From positions 1 through 6,443 of the IMG/VR virus record IMGVR_UViG_2531839666_000013: a stretch of DNA of 6,443 bases; one strand, 5' to 3'. Shown here piece by piece: positions 1 through 6,443 of this stretch (the first letter of the stretch is position 1; every line of letters starts with the position of its first letter). A program made the position numbers and the translations under genes. This DNA is from a virus. Taxonomy: Duplodnaviria > Heunggongvirae > Uroviricota > Caudoviricetes. The notes below the pieces were generated by a model. The model was not told the origin of the DNA, did not search any database, and saw nothing but the letters and a program-made list of their open reading frames with translations.

Positions 1-697
1 CGGCGGGCACTTCTGCCGGTATTATCCGGGAAGGTACGGTTAATCAGCCTGTCACGGCGAAGACCATCCCCCTTGAACAGAAACACCCTGTTGCCCAGTC
101 CGTCACTCCGGCAACGACGCCAGAAACGATAGGCGTTATCTGTCACCCCGGCTTCCCCTCCCGTATCCACAGCCATGGCCATCAGACGCATGCGCACATC
201 CGGATCAGAAGCCAGCGGCCATGTTTTATGGAACACATCCGTCAGCAACAAATCCCAGTCCTCCGGATATGCTGCCGGATCAACCGGCAGACTTTCACCG
301 TTGGGACTGCAGCGTAGTGAATGCCGGATGTTGTAGCGATCAACAATCCAGCGTTCCCCCTGCTCTCCGTATCCGGTGATCTGCACAACAAAACGGCGAT
401 TTTTACCGCCCTGAACGTCAACCGTTGCCTCAATAAAACGCACACCATCCGGCACAGATCTCCGGGGAAACGGCTCGGCACGCTGTTCAAGCAGTTCACT
501 TTTACGCTGTTCCGTGGCTGAACGGGGCAGATAGGGCCGCCCGATATCGGTGTTCACCACCGCTTTCAGGGTCTCTTCACTGCCGGTTCGCTCATACTCT
601 TCTTCTGCCGCCAGCAGCTTAAAAATCAGTTGTTCCCAGGTCTGAAACGCCGCAGCCGGCCCCTCCATCCAGAAACTTGCTATTCTGGAATTTCGGG
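1..697 (-). CDS. A: Terminase large subunit (lambda gpA family), C-terminal portion; in a different frame from the N-terminal ORF, 3' end beyond window start
   Basis: Minus-strand frame with codons ending at 678, 675 ... 3 translates without stops as ...ASFWMEGPAAAFQTWEQLIFKLLAAEEEYERTGSEETLKAVVNTDIGRPY...VDVQGGKNRRFVVQITGYGEQGERWIVDRYNI...AVDTGGEAGVTDNAYRFWRRC.... From memory this is collinear with the lambda gpA region after the CPHCG motif (SPFTTWVQIV...FVNTTLGETWE...IDSQLDRYEMRVWGWG...). It carries no Met start because it continues the 680..1669 ORF after a frame change near 695-699. Confidence 0.75.
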
Positions 698-1669
698 GGT
701 TCCGGTGATACTGCCATCCACCGCTGCCCGTTCGCCTTCCCGCAGCCAGATCCCCTGGTTATTCAGTTCACGCTTCTGTTCCGGAGCAATCAGCCCGCGA
801 CAATGCGGACACATCAGACGGGCCGCCTGCCCGGCAGCCACAAAATCAGGGTTATTCCGGTAACCGGTCATGTTATCCATCACCGGCTGAAAATATTCCC
901 CGCAGTGCGGACACGGCCAGTACCACCGGCGGCGGTCTCCCCTGTTATACAGTGACAGGATCCCCGTTGTTGGCGGTGCCTCATGTGCGCCACCACAACG
1001 CCATTTGGTGTCAGTGATATCCCGCCCCGGTGAACTCTCAACCAGGGTCATCCCCGAAGACATAAAGGTGGTGGTACGCTTTGATGCCAGGGTGAAGGCA
1101 TCCCCTTCCCCGTCCACGTTTTCAGGGAAACGGTCATAATCCGTCAGCGCCACACGACGGTAATCCGAAGAGGAAAATACGGTGATCGACGGCCAGCCAA
1201 TTTTCAGGAATGAGCCGTCAAGAAACATTTTGTCGTGGACGTTGTTGTCATTACGGGAGGGGCTGAGGCGTTTGCAGACCTCCGGGCTGTGGCGAAACGT
1301 CCTGGAAAGACGCGTTCTGGAATGCTCACGCGCCTTCGTCTCGGTCATCTGCACCACCAGCATGTCCGCCGGATCACAGATGATGCCGTACACAATCCAG
1401 CCATCAATCAGCCCTTCGGTTTTCCCGGTTCGCGCAGGTCCGACAAACACCACCGCGTCATATTCACGGGCTGATAATGTATTAATGGGGTCTATCATAT
1501 AGGGCGTCAGCGATGACTCCCACGGACCGGAAGTATTGGCTCCCCGTGGTACCCGCATATAACGCCTGATGGCTTCCGCTACTGGTAACCGGCCAGGTGG
1601 GCGAAACAGCGAGGCCACTTCGCGCCAGATATCGGATGCGCGGCTATGGCTCTCGTTCACCTGATTCAC
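680..1669 (-). CDS. A: Terminase large subunit (lambda gpA family), N-terminal ATPase portion; ends at a premature TAG caused by an apparent 1-nt deletion
   Basis: 329-aa ORF with a P-loop (VVFVGPARTGKTEGL) and the gpA-like motifs SLFRPPG and WYWPCPHCGEYF...LMCPHCRGLI...GIWLREGE, matching lambda gpA SLFRPEP and FHVACPHCGEEQY...GIWTRDG. GTG start at 1669 with GAGG upstream, overlapping the stop of the upstream small-subunit gene. Only about half the expected gpA length before the stop at 680-682. Confidence 0.88.
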   Translation of the reverse strand: MNQVNESHSRASDIWREVASLFRPPGRLPVAEAIRRYMRVPRGANTSGPWESSLTPYMIDPINTLSAREYDAVVFVGPARTGKTEGLIDGWIVYGIICDPADMLVVQMTETKAREHSRTRLSRTFRHSPEVCKRLSPSRNDNNVHDKMFLDGSFLKIGWPSITVFSSSDYRRVALTDYDRFPENVDGEGDAFTLASKRTTTFMSSGMTLVESSPGRDITDTKWRCGGAHEAPPTTGILSLYNRGDRRRWYWPCPHCGEYFQPVMDNMTGYRNNPDFVAAGQAARLMCPHCRGLIAPEQKRELNNQGIWLREGERAAVDGSITGTPEIPE

Positions 1670-2142
1670 ATATCGGCCTCATCACAACAGTCAATGACTG
1701 CCTTTTCCAGTGTGTCGCGGATCTCATCAACCACAATCTGTACTTCATTCAGTTGTGATGCAGTCCACCCCCTGTCCCTCTCCAGCCGGTCAGGCCAGGT
1801 TTCCAGTACCTGAACTATCGCTTTCACCACGACAGAAAAGGACCGCCTGACATCACTGACTGGCACAAGCTGAACAGTTTCATGCTGAAATTTAAGACGC
1901 TCGCGCTCGGACTGATACCATGCCTTACGAGCGTGAGGATCCATATCCTCATCTTCGGAAGATGGTGGTTTTTCCAGCAACGAAGTTATCAAATCCGTCA
2001 GGAGATACAGTTTTTTCTTTTCATTACTGCCTGGTGCAAGAGGAACATCCGCCATTCTGGCGGCAACAGTCTGCCGGTGCAGACCTGAAAGGGCTGCCAG
2101 TTGATTAATATTTAACTTCATATTTTTCAGCTCGCCGTCCAT
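1666..2142 (-). CDS. nu1: Terminase small subunit (lambda Nu1-like, N-terminal HTH DNA-binding domain)
   Basis: 158-aa ORF; N-terminus MKLNINQLAALSGLHRQTVAARMADVPLAPG resembles lambda Nu1 MEVNKKQLADIFGASIRTIQNWQEQGMPVLRG. Sits immediately upstream of and overlapping the large-subunit start (ATGTGA / GTG). GGAGGG lies 6 nt upstream of the ATG at 2142; an alternative start is ATG 2121 (MKLNIN). Confidence 0.85.
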   Translation of the reverse strand: MDGELKNMKLNINQLAALSGLHRQTVAARMADVPLAPGSNEKKKLYLLTDLITSLLEKPPSSEDEDMDPHARKAWYQSERERLKFQHETVQLVPVSDVRRSFSVVVKAIVQVLETWPDRLERDRGWTASQLNEVQIVVDEIRDTLEKAVIDCCDEADM

Positions 2143-2319
2143 TTACATCCCTCCACATAAACCGCAGAACAGAAGTGACTCTGTTTTTTTGTAAAGAAAT
2201 GCCGCCATATAAAGATGTCGAACAAAAAACAACCACAATCATCATCTTTTTAATACTAACAGCATTAAAAACAACAAGTTACCATCATGATGATGATGAC
2301 GATAAAATCACAAAAATGC

Positions 2320-2350
2320 GCCTTTTTCCGCGCCGCCCGCCCCGTGTTCA
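2320..2350 (-). other. Candidate cos site (cosN-like GC-rich element) with an AT-rich cosB-like region between it and nu1
   Basis: Minus-strand ACGGGGCGGGCGGCGCGG (plus 2328..2344 is ccgcgccgcccgccccg) resembles the lambda cosN region ACG|GGGCGGCGACCT|CGCGGG and lies about 190 nt upstream of the nu1 start, the same spacing as in lambda. The intervening 2143..2327 is AT-rich with repeated GATGATGA/TCATCATC blocks and GTTGTTTTT copies. Exact nick positions cannot be derived from sequence alone. Confidence 0.35.
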
Positions 2351-2601
2351 GGCCCACCCCACCAGGAGGACCCGCAAAATGATAATGGTTATCATTTGCA
2401 ATGTAGTCCGGTTTCTTCCACCATCGCACCGGACCAGCGACCATGAGGGGACAACGCCGCGCTCCGTTAACGCGGTAAACCCCGGTGTGTATCGTTTTTG
2501 ATTATCCCCGCACACTCGCGCAGAGGAGTCTCCCTGTCGGGCTGCGGTCTCTGTTAATACGGGAATACGGCGACAATACCGCGCATGGATAATAAGGTCG
2601 C

Positions 2602-2826
2602 TCAACACACTGGCTGTAATGCAGCGGATACCATGCGGCATTTAGCGGCATTCATCGTACACTCAACGGTTAGCTCTTCATTCGTGGCATTCACCTGAAA
2701 GGTCCGGGAGTGTAATTGCGTACATTTACCACTGAACGAACCTTCAACAAGAACACGACCACGCTGCAAAATACGGAACGGAATTGTTCCCTGAAAAGGT
2801 TCTACGGTTACCAGTAATTTCTTCAT
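2602..2826 (-). CDS. Hypothetical small protein (74 aa) between Rz and cos
   Basis: ATG at 2826 with GGAG 6 nt upstream, starting 24 nt after the Rz stop; MKKLLVTVEPFQGTIPFRILQRGRVLVEGSF.... The ORF track extends it to a TTG at 2844 (80 aa). No recognisable family, signal peptide or lipobox. Confidence 0.4.
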   Translation of the reverse strand: MKKLLVTVEPFQGTIPFRILQRGRVLVEGSFSGKCTQLHSRTFQVNATNEELTVECTMNAAKCRMVSAALQPVC

Positions 2827-2849
2827 GCATTCTCCGGATAACAAAAATA

Positions 2850-3323
2850 CTAGTTAATACACTGAGTGCGGATATATTCCTTCGCCCCTTCCAGCTGCTT
2901 CTGCATTGTCATCAACCGTTCTCTGAGGATGAAATAATCCCGTTCAGCGGTGTCTGCCAGTCGGGGGCCGGTTGCATTATCCACGCCGGAGGTGCCGGTG
3001 GCTTCACGCACTGTACCGGGGCAGGTGGCGTTGATCCGCAGGCGCTTACGACCAGCGGCAACATCAGCACGCAGAGTTTCATTTTCAGCTCTCGCATCGG
3101 CTAATTCCCTCGAGTATTTTGCATCGAGCGCAGCAACATCGCGCTGGCGCACCTGCATATCAGTAATGGTTGCGTTTGCCAGCTCCAGCTCTCTGGCTTT
3201 TTTATCGCGCTGCGCTTTGTAGGTGATGGCGTTATCGCGGTAATGATTCAGCCCCAGACTAAGCACACCACAGACCACCAGCAGAATAACGGTAAACGCG
3301 GAAAGCATTCGGTTTATGCTCAC
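2850..3323 (-). CDS. Rz: Rz i-spanin (inner-membrane spanin subunit)
   Basis: 157-aa product is near-collinear with lambda Rz: N-terminal TM segment then [58 protein letters not shown]...[29 protein letters not shown] start at 3323 overlaps the TGA of the upstream small gene. Confidence 0.92.
2912..3097 (-). CDS. Rz1: Rz1 o-spanin lipoprotein, embedded in the +1 frame of Rz
   Basis: 61-aa product [61 protein letters not shown] closely matches lambda Rz1 (MLKLKMMLCV...[27 protein letters not shown]). Lipobox LVVSAC, proline-rich, wholly inside Rz. Confidence 0.88.
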
Positions 3324-3451
3324 CCCAGCAGCCCCGACGAAGATAACATCATCCAGCCCATGGAAAGAAAAAGAGCAACCAGCATTAGTGAAAATGAAAT
3401 GCCGACGATTACACAGAGGATCTTCGCCAGCATTGTGAGTTTGTCTGACAT
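3320..3451 (-). CDS. Small hydrophobic membrane peptide (43 aa), unknown function
   Basis: ATG at 3451 preceded by a strong SD AGGGAGGA 7 nt upstream; product [43 protein letters not shown] is a single predicted TM helix. Its TGA stop overlaps the Rz GTG start (GTGA). Below the ORF-track size cut-off as an ATG-initiated ORF; the track shows a longer alternative-start version (3320..3541). Confidence 0.45.
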
Positions 3452-3465
3452 GTTTAATCCTCCCT

Positions 3466-3648
3466 TCACGATTTCAACGCAATGACCAGTTTTGCCAGCC
3501 CATACAGCATCGGAGACACAGCGATACCGACCGCCACCCACTTAATAGCAAAAGCCAGTGCTCTGCTGATGTCATCAGTTACTGGCGCTTTCAGTTCAAG
3601 GCCGTTTTTCATAGTCAACCTCAACAGAATTCGTTTATACTTTTCCAT
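3466..3648 (-). CDS. Small membrane protein (60 aa, C-terminal TM helix), unknown function
   Basis: ATG at 3648 ([60 protein letters not shown]) with AGGGAG 5 nt upstream. The track ORF starts further up at a GTG (3681) inside the terminator stem, which is less plausible. Followed 14 nt later by the next small gene. Confidence 0.45.
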
Positions 3649-3681
3649 GTTCTCCCTTGCCTTATCCAAGGTCAGAAACAC

Positions 3682-3720
3682 AAAACCCCGCTTGCTGCCA
3701 ACAAACGGGGTTTTTACTTT
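3682..3720. terminator. Rho-independent terminator-like hairpin between the endolysin and the small membrane-peptide genes (possibly bidirectional)
   Basis: Plus strand aaaaccccg-[15 nt loop]-cggggttttt followed by acttttatt: a 9-bp stem with a CCCCG/CGGGG core flanked by an A-run on one side and a T-run on the other. Confidence 0.4.
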
Positions 3721-3804
3721 TATTCACTTAGGTTTTGCCAGTTCGCAGGATTTCGTGTTATCCACCCGCGTTGGCCAACGTCATTTTTCAGCAAAATATT
3801 CTGC

Positions 3805-4338
3805 TTATCTGTCGATTCCCCAGCACGCCAGCGCACTCTCCTGGTCGCGACGGGATACCTGACCGTAGCAATTATTTGAGCGGATACGGCAGTCTCTGCC
3901 ACCGTCCTTAATCCACCAGCGAATCGCTTCACACGCTCCCCTGCGATCGCCTGCATTAATTCGTTTATAAAACGTCGACGGGAAACACTTACCGGGGCCA
4001 ATGTTATACGGGCAGAATGACGCAATACCCGCTTTCTGGGGTTCAGTCAGTGGCACTTTGATGTTTTTCTCCACCCATGCCAGCGCCTTATCACGCTCAA
4101 TGGCGTTAACCCGGTCGCATTTCCCCTTCGACAGCTTCATGCCAGGAATCACAGGCTTACCATCCACCCGGGTGGCTCCACGGCAGATGGTCCAGATACC
4201 CGCACCATCACGGTATGCCGTGGTGTGGTTACCTTCTTTTTCATCCAGAAACTGGTCGAGGATTTCAGGCGCAGAAGCCCCTGCGGCAATCAGCGCCAGA
4301 ACAGCAGCTGACAGGCCGTATTTGATTTTTGCGTTCAT
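3805..4338 (-). CDS. R: SAR endolysin (phage lysozyme, glycoside hydrolase family 24, R21-like)
   Basis: 177-aa product with an N-terminal Gly/Ala-rich signal-anchor-release segment (YGLSAAVLALIAAGASA) followed by EGNHTTAYRDGAGIWTICRG, which matches the E-x8-D-x5-T catalytic arrangement of phage 21 R ([20 protein letters not shown]). Pairs functionally with the pinholin upstream. Confidence 0.92.
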   Translation of the reverse strand: MNAKIKYGLSAAVLALIAAGASAPEILDQFLDEKEGNHTTAYRDGAGIWTICRGATRVDGKPVIPGMKLSKGKCDRVNAIERDKALAWVEKNIKVPLTEPQKAGIASFCPYNIGPGKCFPSTFYKRINAGDRRGACEAIRWWIKDGGRDCRIRSNNCYGQVSRRDQESALACWGIDR

Positions 4339-4374
4339 GGATATATTAAATATTCAGCCGCTGTCCCTGGCCCA

Positions 4375-4563
4375 CTAAATACGCACTTTAAGATAAGTCA
4401 GCCCCGGCTGGATCCAGTTATCAGGCTCAGTCTTAAAGGGTGGAGTATTGAAATCACGAAGAACGGTCTCCCGCACAACTGCATCCTTGTCAGCACCACT
4501 GGCCAGCGCTTCAATCTCAGCAGCTACCTGAAGATATCCCATGCAACGACCAATACGCTTCAT
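4375..4563 (-). CDS. Hypothetical protein (62 aa), second gene of a two-gene cargo module
   Basis: ATG at 4563-4561 overlaps the TGA of the upstream 265-aa gene (ATGA), with AGGGG 5 nt upstream; product [62 protein letters not shown]. No family recognised. Confidence 0.5.
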   Translation of the reverse strand: MKRIGRCMGYLQVAAEIEALASGADKDAVVRETVLRDFNTPPFKTEPDNWIQPGLTYLKVRI

Positions 4564-5360
4564 CAGCCCCTGTTTTTATTGTTCTTCAGGTAATCAATGG
4601 CAAATTCAATGAGCATCTCACAGTGCTGGTGCGATGGCGGTGTTACTTTTCCATTTTCTGATATGGTGATTTTCCCGTCATCACCGGATACAACAAAGGA
4701 TGGCCGGTTACACTCCCGTTCCTGGTTTTTGTCCGACACAGGCACAGTAAAATCACTTTCATGCCCGTTTTTACGACAGTCCTCGCCACGTACCGCAGCA
4801 AATACCGACAAGGCATACTCCTTTGCTCTCGCTTCATAGTCGCTGAATGTTGTTTTCGGATCGTAGTCTTCCCTGTACATAACCGACAGAACTTCCTCAT
4901 GATCAATATGAACACTGACCACGCTGCCTATTCTTTTGGTCAGCACAAGACGAGAATCTTCCCCGACTTTCACTCCTGGTGTCACACGTGCCGGAAGCTC
5001 CACATTAACCATCGCGCTCTGCACATCATCAGGCGCATTTTTTACCGGTTCGTTGACCTTTTCACGCCCCGGGTAAGTGGCGATTTTTTCCGGCATTGTC
5101 CATGAAGAAATATTCTGAAAGCCATATCGCGCAGTCCCTTCGCGTAATCCGAGAGCCGCATCCATGAAAAACTGCTTCGCCTGTTTTTTCGCCTCAGCTT
5201 CGTAAAACTCCAGCGTGGCACCTTCAGTACGGTCAAGACTAATCGCCACATATGGCGACAACAACGACGGCTGCCCGGCAATTACCAGTGCCACAGTAAC
5301 AGTTATCTTATCCGGGTAATGATTTATCCCTTTTACAACCAGTTCATATTTTTTATTCAT
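4563..5360 (-). CDS. Hypothetical protein (265 aa), cargo gene between pinholin and endolysin
   Basis: ATG at 5360 ([18 protein letters not shown]...) preceded by GGGGAG. Long stop-free frame to TGA at 4563-4565 with protein-like composition. In the ORF track it appears fused in frame to the holin as a 355-aa ORF (4563..5630), but the holin part is clearly a separate gene. One hydrophobic stretch ([22 protein letters not shown]) near the N-terminus; no motif I can assign. Confidence 0.7.
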
Positions 5361-5364
5361 CGCT

Positions 5365-5578
5365 TTACTCTCCCCGGGCGCCTTACGACGGTCTTCTTTA
5401 ATCTTGAAATACAGGTTCGTCAGGTACGTCAGCAGACCAAACAGCAGACTCCCCAGCACGCCTATTGCCGCCCACTGAGACGGGGAAACCCTGTCCAGCA
5501 ACTGCAGGAACCAGTAGCCCGTTCCACCGCTGACGTGGTGTATGACACACCTGTTGTGAATTTTTCCATCTGGTACAT
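5365..5578 (-). pseudogene. S: Class II pinholin (phage 21 S21-like) with dual-start motif; reading frame broken twice by apparent 1-nt deletions
   Basis: Frame B from ATG 5578 gives [17 protein letters not shown] (S21: MKSMDKISTGIAYGTSA); frame A then gives [50 protein letters not shown] (S21: [47 protein letters not shown]). Restoring one base near 5372-5381 recreates ...GE-TAA at 5365-5367, as in S21. It may equally be intact in reality if the deletions are sequencing errors. Confidence 0.8.
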
Positions 5579-5652
5579 ACCCGTCTCCGCAATCCGGAAG
5601 CTCACAACAATATAAAGACCACCGGCACACACCGATGGTCCCTTGCGCATGC

Positions 5653-5898
5653 TTACATCATCATGTCGCTGTCAGGTGTGGGGTCACCGCCATCTGAAGC
5701 ACTCCCCTCACCCGCGATACCTTCCGGCTCCGGAACTGCCGGTGCGCCCAGCAGTTCATCCAGAATGGCATCCACTTCTGCATCAAGACGCGCCTCGAGG
5801 TTCTGGCGGAGTTTCTGTTTCAGTGCGCTCAGGACTTCTTCAGAGCGCAGGACTTCCTTCACTGCCTCTGCAGTGACCAGGGATGTAATTTCTGACAT
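5653..5898 (-). CDS. Small highly acidic protein (81 aa), unknown function
   Basis: [81 protein letters not shown]: about 18 Asp/Glu against 6 Lys/Arg, helical N-terminal half and an acidic low-complexity tail. The track's 139-aa ORF (5653..6072) is the same frame with an implausible N-terminal extension. The RBS is weak. Confidence 0.55.
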
Positions 5899-5938
5899 GG
5901 GATTTTCTCGTCGAAAGGTGTGATTAAGAAAGTTGCAG

Positions 5939-6118
5939 CTAAATGAGCGGCTCTTCGGGTTTGCTTCCGGCTGACTGACTGGCGCTGATTTTCTCTGCGG
6001 CCCTTTTATCAATCTGCCTGCGCCAGAAATCGCGCACTGCCCTGTACCCACCCGAAAGAAGATACAGCACACAGACCGCCGTACAGAAGCACAGCATTAA
6101 CTGGTTCAGAAATGTCAT
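5939..6118 (-). CDS. Small membrane protein (59 aa, N-terminal TM helix), unknown function
   Basis: ATG at 6118 with GGTGAG upstream; MTFLNQLMLCFCTAVCVLYLLSGGYRAVRDFWRRQIDKRAAEKISASQSAGSKPEEPLI; stop TAG at 5939-5941. Just below the ORF-track size cut-off; it overlaps, in another frame, the unlikely extension of the 139-aa ORF. Confidence 0.45.
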   Translation of the reverse strand: MTFLNQLMLCFCTAVCVLYLLSGGYRAVRDFWRRQIDKRAAEKISASQSAGSKPEEPLI

Positions 6119-6204
6119 GGTTTCTCACCGTGATAGTTGACATGATTTACTTATTTTTGTAGAAAAACACCGCAGACTTCGGTGTCATCATGGTCGTTTT
6201 ACCA

Positions 6205-6267
6205 GCCGCCAGCATTCATGTAGTGGACAAAGTTCATCCCTTTCCTTCATTGCTGGCGGCCTTTTTT
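6205..6267 (+). terminator. Hairpin with 10-bp GC-rich stem and T6 tract (plus-strand polarity), directly after the stop of the upstream minus-strand gene
   Basis: Plus gccgccagca (6205..6214) pairs with tgctggcggc (6251..6260), separated by a 36-nt loop, followed by cttttttatc. The T-tract is on the plus strand only; on the minus strand the structure is preceded by an A-run. Confidence 0.3.
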
Positions 6268-6268
6268 A

Positions 6269-6443
6269 TCATGCCGCGGCATCCGCGTTGTTCACTTCCA
6301 CCTTCACACTGTCAATCAGCAACGTATATGTCGCCGCCTTTGATATGTCTGTCAGTTGCAGTTTGTCCGCCGCCCCTGATGCCGGAGATTTCACCAGTGT
6401 GAACGGTGTACCCCGTTCTCATCCAGTACCGGCGTCACCTGAA
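6269..6443 (-). CDS. 3' end of an unidentified upstream gene (partial), frame broken by an apparent 1-nt deletion in a G-run
   Basis: Minus frame c reads ...QVTPVLDENGVHRSHW-stop; the adjacent frame b continues as TPFTLVKSPASGAADKLQLTDISKAATYTLLIDSVKVEVNNADAAA to a stop at 6269-6271. Restoring one G in the GGGG run (plus cccc 6411..6414) joins them into one frame. Identity unknown; its position upstream of the holin would fit a late-gene regulator such as Q, but I cannot confirm that from the sequence. Confidence 0.45.

Follow-up and report, generated by a model that had tools for sequence, protein, structure and literature searches.

The lysis genes in IMG/VR virus record IMGVR_UViG_2531839666_000013 raise the question of what fills the 481 bp that lie between the endolysin gene R and the i-spanin gene Rz, and of what the genes found there might do. 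The window, that is, the whole stretch of 6,443 nucleotides analysed here (positions 1 to 6,443 of the record), corresponds to the late region of a lambdoid Escherichia coli prophage, kin to phage 21 and to the Shiga toxin (Stx) phages, and it is read on the minus strand. An initial annotation had described an R-Rz gap of about 480 bp, holding a hairpin and two small open reading frames (ORFs), as an insertion relative to lambda-type R/Rz junctions. The gap and its contents, all of them on the minus strand, were confirmed, and the comparisons described below support the insertion. The first frame, ORF A, proved to be a genuine protein gene under strong purifying selection, and an accessory role in lysis control emerged as its most likely, if tentatively held, function. 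The two frames had initially been given equal standing; ORF A is in fact well constrained, whereas the second frame, ORF B, shows weak constraint at the protein level. The elements of the locus are these:

4338-3805, minus strand: signal-anchor-release (SAR) endolysin R, 177 amino acids (aa), Pfam Phage_lysozyme at E = 3e-24
3804-3324, minus strand: the R-Rz gap under study
3804-3715, minus strand: conserved non-coding segment of about 90 nt from the R stop to the hairpin, containing GGATAACAC
3714-3682, minus strand: terminator-like hairpin AAAACCCCGTTTGTTGGCAGCAAGCGGGGTTTT, with a stem of 15 pairs and a 3-nt loop, followed by U-rich TTTTGTGTTT
3671-3655, minus strand: small hairpin CCTTG-GATAAGG-CAAGG in a predicted fold, pairing part of the Shine-Dalgarno sequence (SD) of ORF A
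3648-3466, minus strand: ORF A, 60 aa, with SD AAGGGAG at 3658-3652, five bases before the ATG
3622-3610, minus strand: internal SD GAGG (3622-3619) and Met13 codon (3612-3610) of ORF A, a putative second start giving a 48-aa isoform
3451-3320, minus strand: ORF B, 43 aa, with SD AAGGGAGGA at 3466-3458, seven bases before the ATG
3326-3320, minus strand: GGGGTGA, the last codons and the stop of ORF B, almost invariant across 293 loci
3323-2850, minus strand: Rz i-spanin, starting at GTG 3323 or ATG 3308, Pfam Phage_lysis at E = 8e-49

The coding status of ORF A follows from the pattern of its variation. Across 29 distinct nucleotide versions, the variable sites are distributed as 16/6/32 over the three codon positions (chi-square p = 7e-5), and synonymous substitutions make up 61% of the changes against an expected 28% (p = 3e-8). 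The pairwise ratio of non-synonymous to synonymous rates (dN/dS) is 0.16, and stops interrupt both other frames. The initial annotation had credited each frame with a strong SD and had named conservation across homologous regions as a check. The SDs are present in both cases. Strong purifying selection places ORF A beyond chance; ORF B, which is weakly constrained and found in E. coli only, probably is so too.

At the protein level, ORF A gives full-length profile matches to PHROG 1115 and PHROG 4493 (E = 1.4e-42 and 4.8e-30), both annotated as of unknown function, and its divergent relatives match the same PHROGs. The family is small, with 21 clusters at E <= 1e-3 in a profile search of 1.84 billion representative proteins, and it is confined to enterobacterial phages; scans of genome contigs, taking one genome per species, yielded zero relatives. 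Its members are 35-50% identical and share a (K/R)Y(K/R)...AP motif, then an Ala-rich helix and a transmembrane domain that ends in ALKS or RWW. Neither ORF A nor ORF B has a Pfam, NCBIfam, PADLOC or PDB sequence match. For ORF A, the Pfam/NCBIfam search returned no hit even at E = 10, hence none of the holin families (e.g., PF04971, PF05106, PF16080), and with PADLOC the ORF A of the window, its GER2-type version and ORF B all went unmatched at E <= 1.

That both frames code for small hydrophobic peptides, as initially proposed, is borne out by hydropathy. ORF A has one C-terminal segment, at residues 38-56, whose Kyte-Doolittle (KD) value of 1.90 is close to those of the SAR domain of R and of transmembrane domain 2 of the holin, and ORF B is hydrophobic almost throughout, with a KD value of 2.89 at residues 11-29. 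In R itself, a weakly hydrophobic N-terminal segment spans residues 9-27. ORF A contains 10 Lys and Arg against 4 Asp and Glu, with a basic N-terminus, and its AlphaFold2 model (pLDDT 75) consists of only two helices, one of low confidence (residues 3-15) and one covering residues 22-59 (pLDDT around 88). The model and the charge distribution suggest a tail-anchored protein, with a basic N-terminus that would lie in the cytoplasm and a weakly hydrophobic C-terminal anchor.

A second characteristic of ORF A is the presence of two candidate start sites, 12 codons apart, each with a conserved SD. At the upstream one (Met1), an SD and an ATG or GTG are kept in every lineage, and the 12 extra residues are conserved as protein. 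At the downstream one, every one of the 23 distinct 5' coding sequences has an internal ATG, which never varies, with GAGG(T) 6-9 nt ahead of it, while random synonymous recoding of the same peptides generates such an SD in 1.8% of trials; the Arg that precedes Leu-Thr/Ser-Met is encoded in 23/23 by the rare codon AGG, itself preceded by G. Many gene callers choose Met13 and thus report 48-aa forms. The simplest reading of this sequence pattern would be that two isoforms, of 60 and 48 aa, are made, the longer one bearing four more basic residues. In Salmonella and GER2-type loci (L166-L169, L003, L320-L323), a 27-nt insert just 5' of ORF A creates an 8-codon mini-ORF (ATGTGTAGGGAGGTGTGTTCCCTGTGA) with a stop codon that overlaps the GTG at which ORF A begins; in the window, which lacks the insert, the SD and ATG of the mini-ORF directly serve ORF A.

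The hairpin that precedes ORF A folds better than 200/200 shuffled versions of the segment (z = -3.6), and the A tract and T tract that flank it at 3714-3682 make it bidirectional in form. A hairpin with an A tract, a GC stem and a T tract is found 30-80 nt 5' of the ORF in E. coli, Salmonella, GER2 and phiSTEC1575-Stx2k, and an equivalent one precedes the gene in a metagenomic phage where it follows the tail-fibre genes, in a contig with tandem paralogs and in 30 diverse IMG/VR loci. When a strict finder was applied to the 140 nt that precede the ORF, 28 of 33 distinct loci of the family scored a comparable hairpin, as against 71 of 600 random windows; in four of the five loci that it missed, inspection by eye revealed a bulged hairpin, which brings the overall figure to 28-32 of 33. 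The stems vary with matched changes on both arms (CCCCG/CGGGG, CCCCTGA/TCAGGGG, GGCCCCGA/TCAGGGCC and GCCCCGCCAG/CTGGCAGGGC). Moreover, the same leader is found in a tail context (L325) and in lysis contexts (L339, L342), which indicates that the moving unit comprises hairpin, leader and ORF together. The hairpin at 3682-3714 is, therefore, the 5' part of a mobile ORF A cassette.

Two other parts of the interval between R and ORF A are also conserved. The segment at 3804-3715 is shared by loci of E. coli and Salmonella, whether the endolysin before it is of the GH24 or the GH19 class, and to judge from this distribution it may be part of the cassette; neither a promoter nor a known RNA was found in it. 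An antiterminator pairing between this segment and the hairpin, suggested by eye, was dropped when the Salmonella hairpin variants did not covary with it. In the small hairpin at 3655-3671, the stem is conserved and the loop is variable across E. coli and Salmonella.

How these genes would be expressed can be approached from what precedes them. A search for sigma-70-like promoters on the coding strand between 2500 and 4600 found none, and a candidate inside ORF A (TTGACx) was rejected because it has no usable -10. Only 33 nt separate the end of the hairpin (3682) from the ATG of ORF A (3648). A second terminator-like hairpin is located between the DUF826 gene and the holin gene (5643-5614, minus strand). 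In lambdoid phages, Q-modified RNA polymerase transcribes through terminators. The absence of a promoter, the 33-nt spacing and the pre-holin hairpin together imply that ORF A, ORF B, Rz and the genes beyond are transcribed from upstream, through terminators. Late-only expression of ORF A and ORF B is thus predicted, which argues against both a moron expressed in the lysogen and a self-contained toxin gene.

Comparison of the R-Rz junction across related prophages, a check named in the initial annotation, showed that the ORF A cassette recurs between varied endolysins and i-spanins. Among the 30 diverse loci, 19 are lysis cassettes by our reading of the gene context, and further cases are the window, the Salmonella loci, GER2 and phiSTEC1575-Stx2k. 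The endolysins that precede ORF A belong to at least four classes (GH24/SAR lysozyme, GH19, GH108 with PG_binding_3, PG_binding_1 and M15), and the i-spanins that directly follow it to at least two families (Rz PF03245, DUF2514 and unclassified i-spanin-like ones with an embedded lipoprotein ORF). The ORF A stop usually lies 1-13 nt from the start codon of the next gene, in many cases just 1-3 nt from its ATG, and in L318/L319 no small membrane ORF other than ORF A adjoins the endolysin. The association of ORF A with lysis genes is, consequently, strong, though not exclusive. The junction is also recombinationally unstable, since a metagenome scaffold (L347) and proteins from complete E. coli genomes (P0203, P0194, P0208) show ORF A fused behind ORF B or behind the holin, as well as partial ORF A copies in tandem, as many as three together.

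ORF B has a full-length match to PHROG 4906, annotated as of unknown function (E = 3.3e-20). Its homologs are found in E. coli only (112 clusters, all hypothetical) and in 276 phage records, many Stx phages among them, where they are mostly unannotated. It always lies immediately 5' of Rz, and its upstream neighbour can be ORF A, ant, or a hydrophobic ORF of 26 aa that ends in a sequence similar to the C-terminus of ORF A. In the Salmonella and GER2 cassettes, ORF B is absent and ORF A abuts Rz. A duplication of the N-terminal transmembrane domain of Rz was considered as the origin of ORF B and rejected, because BLASTP produced no alignment.

The 3' end of ORF B bears on the start of Rz. A GTGA stop/start overlap had been noted there initially, and the overlap exists, as the ORF B stop TGA (3322-3320) overlaps the GTG at 3323 that opens the Rz frame; the start itself is ambiguous, PGAP placing it at ATG 3308. 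In alleles that have an ATG 7 nt downstream, GGGGTGA constitutes the SD of Rz. In the window-type allele (about 200 of the 293 loci), this usual ATG is replaced by ATA, so that Rz must start in the window at GTG 3323 or at ATG 3308. The GTG gives a protein beginning MSINRM... and is the only start that provides the N-terminal Arg found in other Rz proteins, while ATG 3308 leaves no positive charge before the transmembrane domain. On these sequence grounds, a start at the GTG that overlaps the ORF B stop is plausible and, if it is the true one, translation of Rz would be coupled to that of ORF B.

All these observations could be integrated in a joint best reading, tentative as it is, in which ORF A and ORF B are late-expressed accessory lysis proteins. 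By hydropathy, AlphaFold2 and gene order, ORF A is a small protein with at least one transmembrane domain encoded beside an endolysin, as is usual for holins. Of the three functions that the initial annotation had offered (type I toxin, holin/antiholin-like modulator, exclusion protein), the second fits best, given the position in lysis cassettes, the lack of an own promoter behind a terminator, the conserved dual-start signal and a tail anchor resembling that of N4 gp63. In the model that we propose, the hairpin, with no promoter after it, would silence the genes until Q-antiterminated late transcription reads through. ORF A would then act as an accessory of the holin or antiholin kind, located in the inner membrane, and could tune the timing or efficiency of the envelope breach through helix-helix contacts with the pinholin or with the transmembrane domain of Rz, its 60-aa and 48-aa isoforms acting perhaps as a timing pair, as in dual-start holins. 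ORF B, whose translation ends on or at the ribosome-binding site of Rz, would at a minimum deliver ribosomes to Rz, and possibly matters mainly for Rz translation. A bolder version, which we regard as decidedly unlikely, would make the ORF A family an undescribed class of lysis control: a C-tail-anchored mini-holin/antiholin of about 50-60 aa with two isoforms, pluggable at the endolysin/spanin junction and carrying its own terminator hairpin so as to be expressed only from the antiterminated late transcript; in S21-type phages a W-x-A-x-G-x-x-x-S motif, imitating the beginning of transmembrane domain 2 of the pinholin, would let it co-assemble with that protein, and ORF B, specific to E. coli and coupled to Rz translation, would add a second partner in the membrane.

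Several points weigh against a role in lysis. There is no sequence homology between ORF A and any holin, antiholin, releasin or N4 gp63, and no experiment or paper on either family was found in the literature. Few isolated phages carry the family (about 14 of 50,697 records), and lambda, 21 and P22 lyse without it, so ORF A is not essential. The holin and large terminase genes of the window are frameshifted, which means that this copy may not reside in a working phage; R, ORF A, ORF B and Rz are all intact in the window, and the functional, plaque-forming phages of the PhiR12 and PhiR5 series retain both genes. Finally, 11 of the 30 diverse loci are located in tail or baseplate operons or after tail-fibre genes: relatives of ORF A follow tail-fibre genes in L171/L316, lie between the tail tube protein gene and that of its chaperone in L325, and are found between baseplate genes in L331-334 and L340. 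These tail-context relatives look more like a general movable accessory gene.

The last point leads to the notion, in our view unlikely, that ORF A, alone or together with ORF B, is a moron (broadly defined) unrelated to lysis and devoted to superinfection exclusion, abortive infection or host takeover, the R-Rz junction being merely a tolerated insertion site. The cassette is indeed an extra gene inserted within a conserved operon, at various junctions and with various neighbours, and such a notion would account for the tail and baseplate settings, for the transfer of the whole hairpin-leader-ORF unit between lysis and tail contexts, and for the duplications and fusions at the unstable junction. 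In L172 (325-737), two tandem paralogs of 59 and 46 aa, both ending in AAIRWW and each with its own upstream hairpin, apparently lie between the end of the terminase gene and the start of the portal gene, which adds a further non-lysis setting. A precedent would be HK97 gp15, a small inner-membrane protein from the tail operon that excludes superinfecting phage. However, a classical moron, as described by Hendrix and Juhala, is transcribed in the prophage from a promoter of its own and is closed by a terminator after the gene, whereas here the terminator-like hairpin comes before the gene and the search for a promoter was negative. Moreover, PADLOC and the matched PHROG families offer no link to defence or exclusion, and most loci are in lysis cassettes, with ORF A held tight to the spanin gene across unrelated families of neighbours. 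A very unlikely alternative, already raised as a type I toxin in the initial annotation, is that ORF A is a membrane toxin controlled by a cis-antisense RNA of about 80 nt that would arise within codons 1-12, cover the SD and the start and end at the hairpin. A promoter-like site on the plus strand (TAGTCA-18-TATACT, 3612-3641) does lie at exactly the fitting place inside codons 1-12; the predicted 84-nt RNA (3647-3730) would fold into a small hairpin followed by a terminator (z = -3.1); the hairpin that accompanies the ORF has U tracts both ways; and a -10-like hexamer (TATACT, TATAAT or TACAAT) recurs in divergent members. Nevertheless, this is one promoter-like site in a region where 2.1 are expected by chance, and random synonymous codons score equally well or better for the antisense promoter in 5-45% of trials for all 23 variants, so that there is no sign of selection for the promoter itself beyond what the encoded peptide predicts. 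The toxin mRNA would, in addition, lack its own promoter after the hairpin, and an Rfam search gave nothing above threshold, the best hit being the rimP leader (E = 0.67).

A different doubt concerns ORF B alone, which could be little more than translated spacer. According to this somewhat unlikely explanation, ORF A and the hairpin are the sole functional elements, and ORF B is a weakly constrained leftover, kept because it inherited an SD at its 5' end and the ribosome-binding site of Rz at its 3' end. The synonymous excess in ORF B is in fact not significant (34% versus 28% expected, p = 0.2), its three codon positions vary about equally (25/19/26 variable sites), the frame is confined to E. 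coli and dispensed with in the Salmonella and GER2 cassettes, and the only invariant part of its 3' end is GGGGTGA. On the other hand, the frame is intact, at 43-44 aa, in 293 of 303 loci, and none of 83 variants contains a stop, which 3.2% of random changes would create. Its replacements are more conservative than random in this frame alone (p = 0.01 versus 0.35), its pairwise dN/dS is 0.42 versus 1.0-1.35 in the sole other open frame, and it has a start codon and an SD-like motif whichever of the three upstream contexts it follows. This pattern of substitution suggests that ORF B is probably a translated, loosely constrained hydrophobic peptide.

Lysis timing sets the burst size of a phage and, in Stx-type prophages, also affects toxin release. 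To our knowledge, known lysis regulators (antiholins, releasin, the accessory proteins of N4 and P1) are few, and each came from genetics in a single phage. What is described here is a small family, present in some 990 complete E. coli genomes and in Salmonella prophages, that occupies the same slot among unrelated endolysins and spanins and bears a dual-start signature. This makes ORF A a concrete and cheaply testable candidate for a portable lysis modulator, and not a categorically new kind of system. Should it turn out to be an exclusion or toxicity factor instead, the constant hairpin-plus-ORF cassette would still be an unusual packaging for an accessory gene; if no phenotype were found, the result would be an ordinary one, two hypothetical prophage genes.

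The elements are not new to databases. A 531-bp region is present at 95-99% identity in seven isolated phages (PhiR12 and the PhiR5 series), where both ORFs are annotated as hypothetical, and at >=80% query coverage in 990 of 5,426 complete E. coli genomes, where PGAP calls both hypothetical proteins (WP_052834940.1 and WP_001280968.1). The suspicion that automated annotation would miss them is thus mistaken, yet it applies to the ORF B homolog in many Stx-phage records. They are, then, already catalogued hypothetical genes, for which no functional annotation was found.

The remaining features of the window are as follows:

6118-5939, minus strand: DUF1378 gene
5898-5653, minus strand: DUF826 gene
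start at about 5577, minus strand: S21-like class II holin
up to 4563, minus strand: DUF1327 protein
4563-4375, minus strand: 62-aa ORF
3097-2912, minus strand: Rz1, embedded in Rz, a listed ORF
2826-2602, minus strand: 74-aa ORF
2142-1666, minus strand: Nu1-like small terminase
from 1669, minus strand: large terminase (TerL)

Compared with the closest genome, the S21-like holin gene (5590-5360, minus strand) has single-base deletions in G runs at about 5526 and 5380; it is, therefore, frameshifted and reads into the DUF1327 ORF. More one-base homopolymer differences occur at 5589, 5583 and 4578, and the large terminase frame is broken near 690-700; these breaks may be either homopolymer sequencing errors or signs of a decaying prophage. 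The match of the 62-aa ORF is limited to the last 62 positions of the 296-position PHROG 1085, and that of the 74-aa ORF, which lies within a segment of about 250 bp missing from the closest genome, to positions 100-172 of the 291-position PHROG 2571. Both look like what mosaic recombination has left of larger genes. Just past the SASA esterase gene there is a long inverted repeat (GCCGCCAGCA...TGCTGGCGGC, about 6258-6160, minus strand). According to a 2026 preprint, the prophage small RNAs PasA and PasC map to the interval that separates the sialic acid esterase from the holin-lysozyme operon; by the preprint's description and matched by position, this is the esterase-to-holin interval of the window. 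These Pas RNAs of Stx prophages were rejected as content of the R-Rz gap because they map upstream of the holin.

When compared with known systems, ORF A resembles the dual-start holin/antiholin pairs, S107/S105 of lambda and S71/S68 of phage 21, in its location in the lysis cassette, in its small size as a membrane protein and in its candidate starts, two in frame and each with an SD, of which the upstream one would give a longer form with extra N-terminal positive charge. In ORF A, however, the starts are 12 codons apart instead of 2-3, and there is one C-terminal transmembrane domain instead of 2-3, with no match to a holin Pfam family. P2 LysA, a non-essential membrane protein with a reported effect on lysis timing, is encoded between K (the endolysin) and lysB/lysC, and so occupies the same endolysin-spanin slot, but it is much larger and has several transmembrane domains. 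Like the type I toxins (Hok, Ldr, TisB, Ibs), the products considered here are short hydrophobic inner-membrane peptides encoded on prophages, and HK97 gp15 belongs to a tail operon, as do some ORF A relatives; unlike either, ORF A has no promoter of its own, supported antisense RNA or family match, and its terminator is upstream rather than downstream.

Among accessory lysis factors that are not holins, the releasin gp25 of Mu is a DUF2730 protein with an N-terminal transmembrane domain (N-out, C-in) and an acidic cytoplasmic domain of 73 aa (PMC9239132). Like gp25, ORF A is a small protein whose gene lies close to those of a SAR endolysin and of spanins, and it would likewise be tethered to the membrane with most of its length in the cytoplasm. 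It differs in its C-terminal transmembrane domain, its basic 36-aa N-terminus and its lack of a DUF2730 match, and also in that it accompanies endolysin classes other than SAR. Within its own lysis cassette, the start of the ORF A transmembrane domain aligns with transmembrane domain 2 of the resident S21-like pinholin, with W, A, G and S at the same spacing. The resemblance is weak (16 residues, BLASTP E = 0.006 for a single comparison), and the holin::ORF A fusion is joined exactly there on a metagenome scaffold that could be an assembly chimera; this likeness in sequence is a lead toward a possible direct helix-helix interaction, not evidence for one.

The closest architecture is that of the N4 pinholin gp63. 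In that protein the predicted anchor is C-terminal, the N-terminus is helical and on the cytoplasmic side, and Met17 offers an alternative start (PMC12642591); its partners in lysis are a SAR endolysin and a further, non-essential regulator, gp62 (PMC12642591; bioRxiv 10.1101/2025.11.12.688109). A common origin was rejected (hhalign probability 0.1%, E = 0.49). The two proteins differ in size (110 aa for gp63, 60 aa for ORF A) and in gene position, upstream of the endolysin in N4 and between endolysin and spanin here, and the phage of ORF A, unlike N4, already carries an S21-type pinholin gene. Both are, nonetheless, small membrane proteins of a lysis cassette with a single predicted C-terminal, Gly/Ala-rich transmembrane domain, both have an alternative internal start (Met17 in gp63, the putative Met13 in ORF A), and both are partnered by a SAR endolysin.

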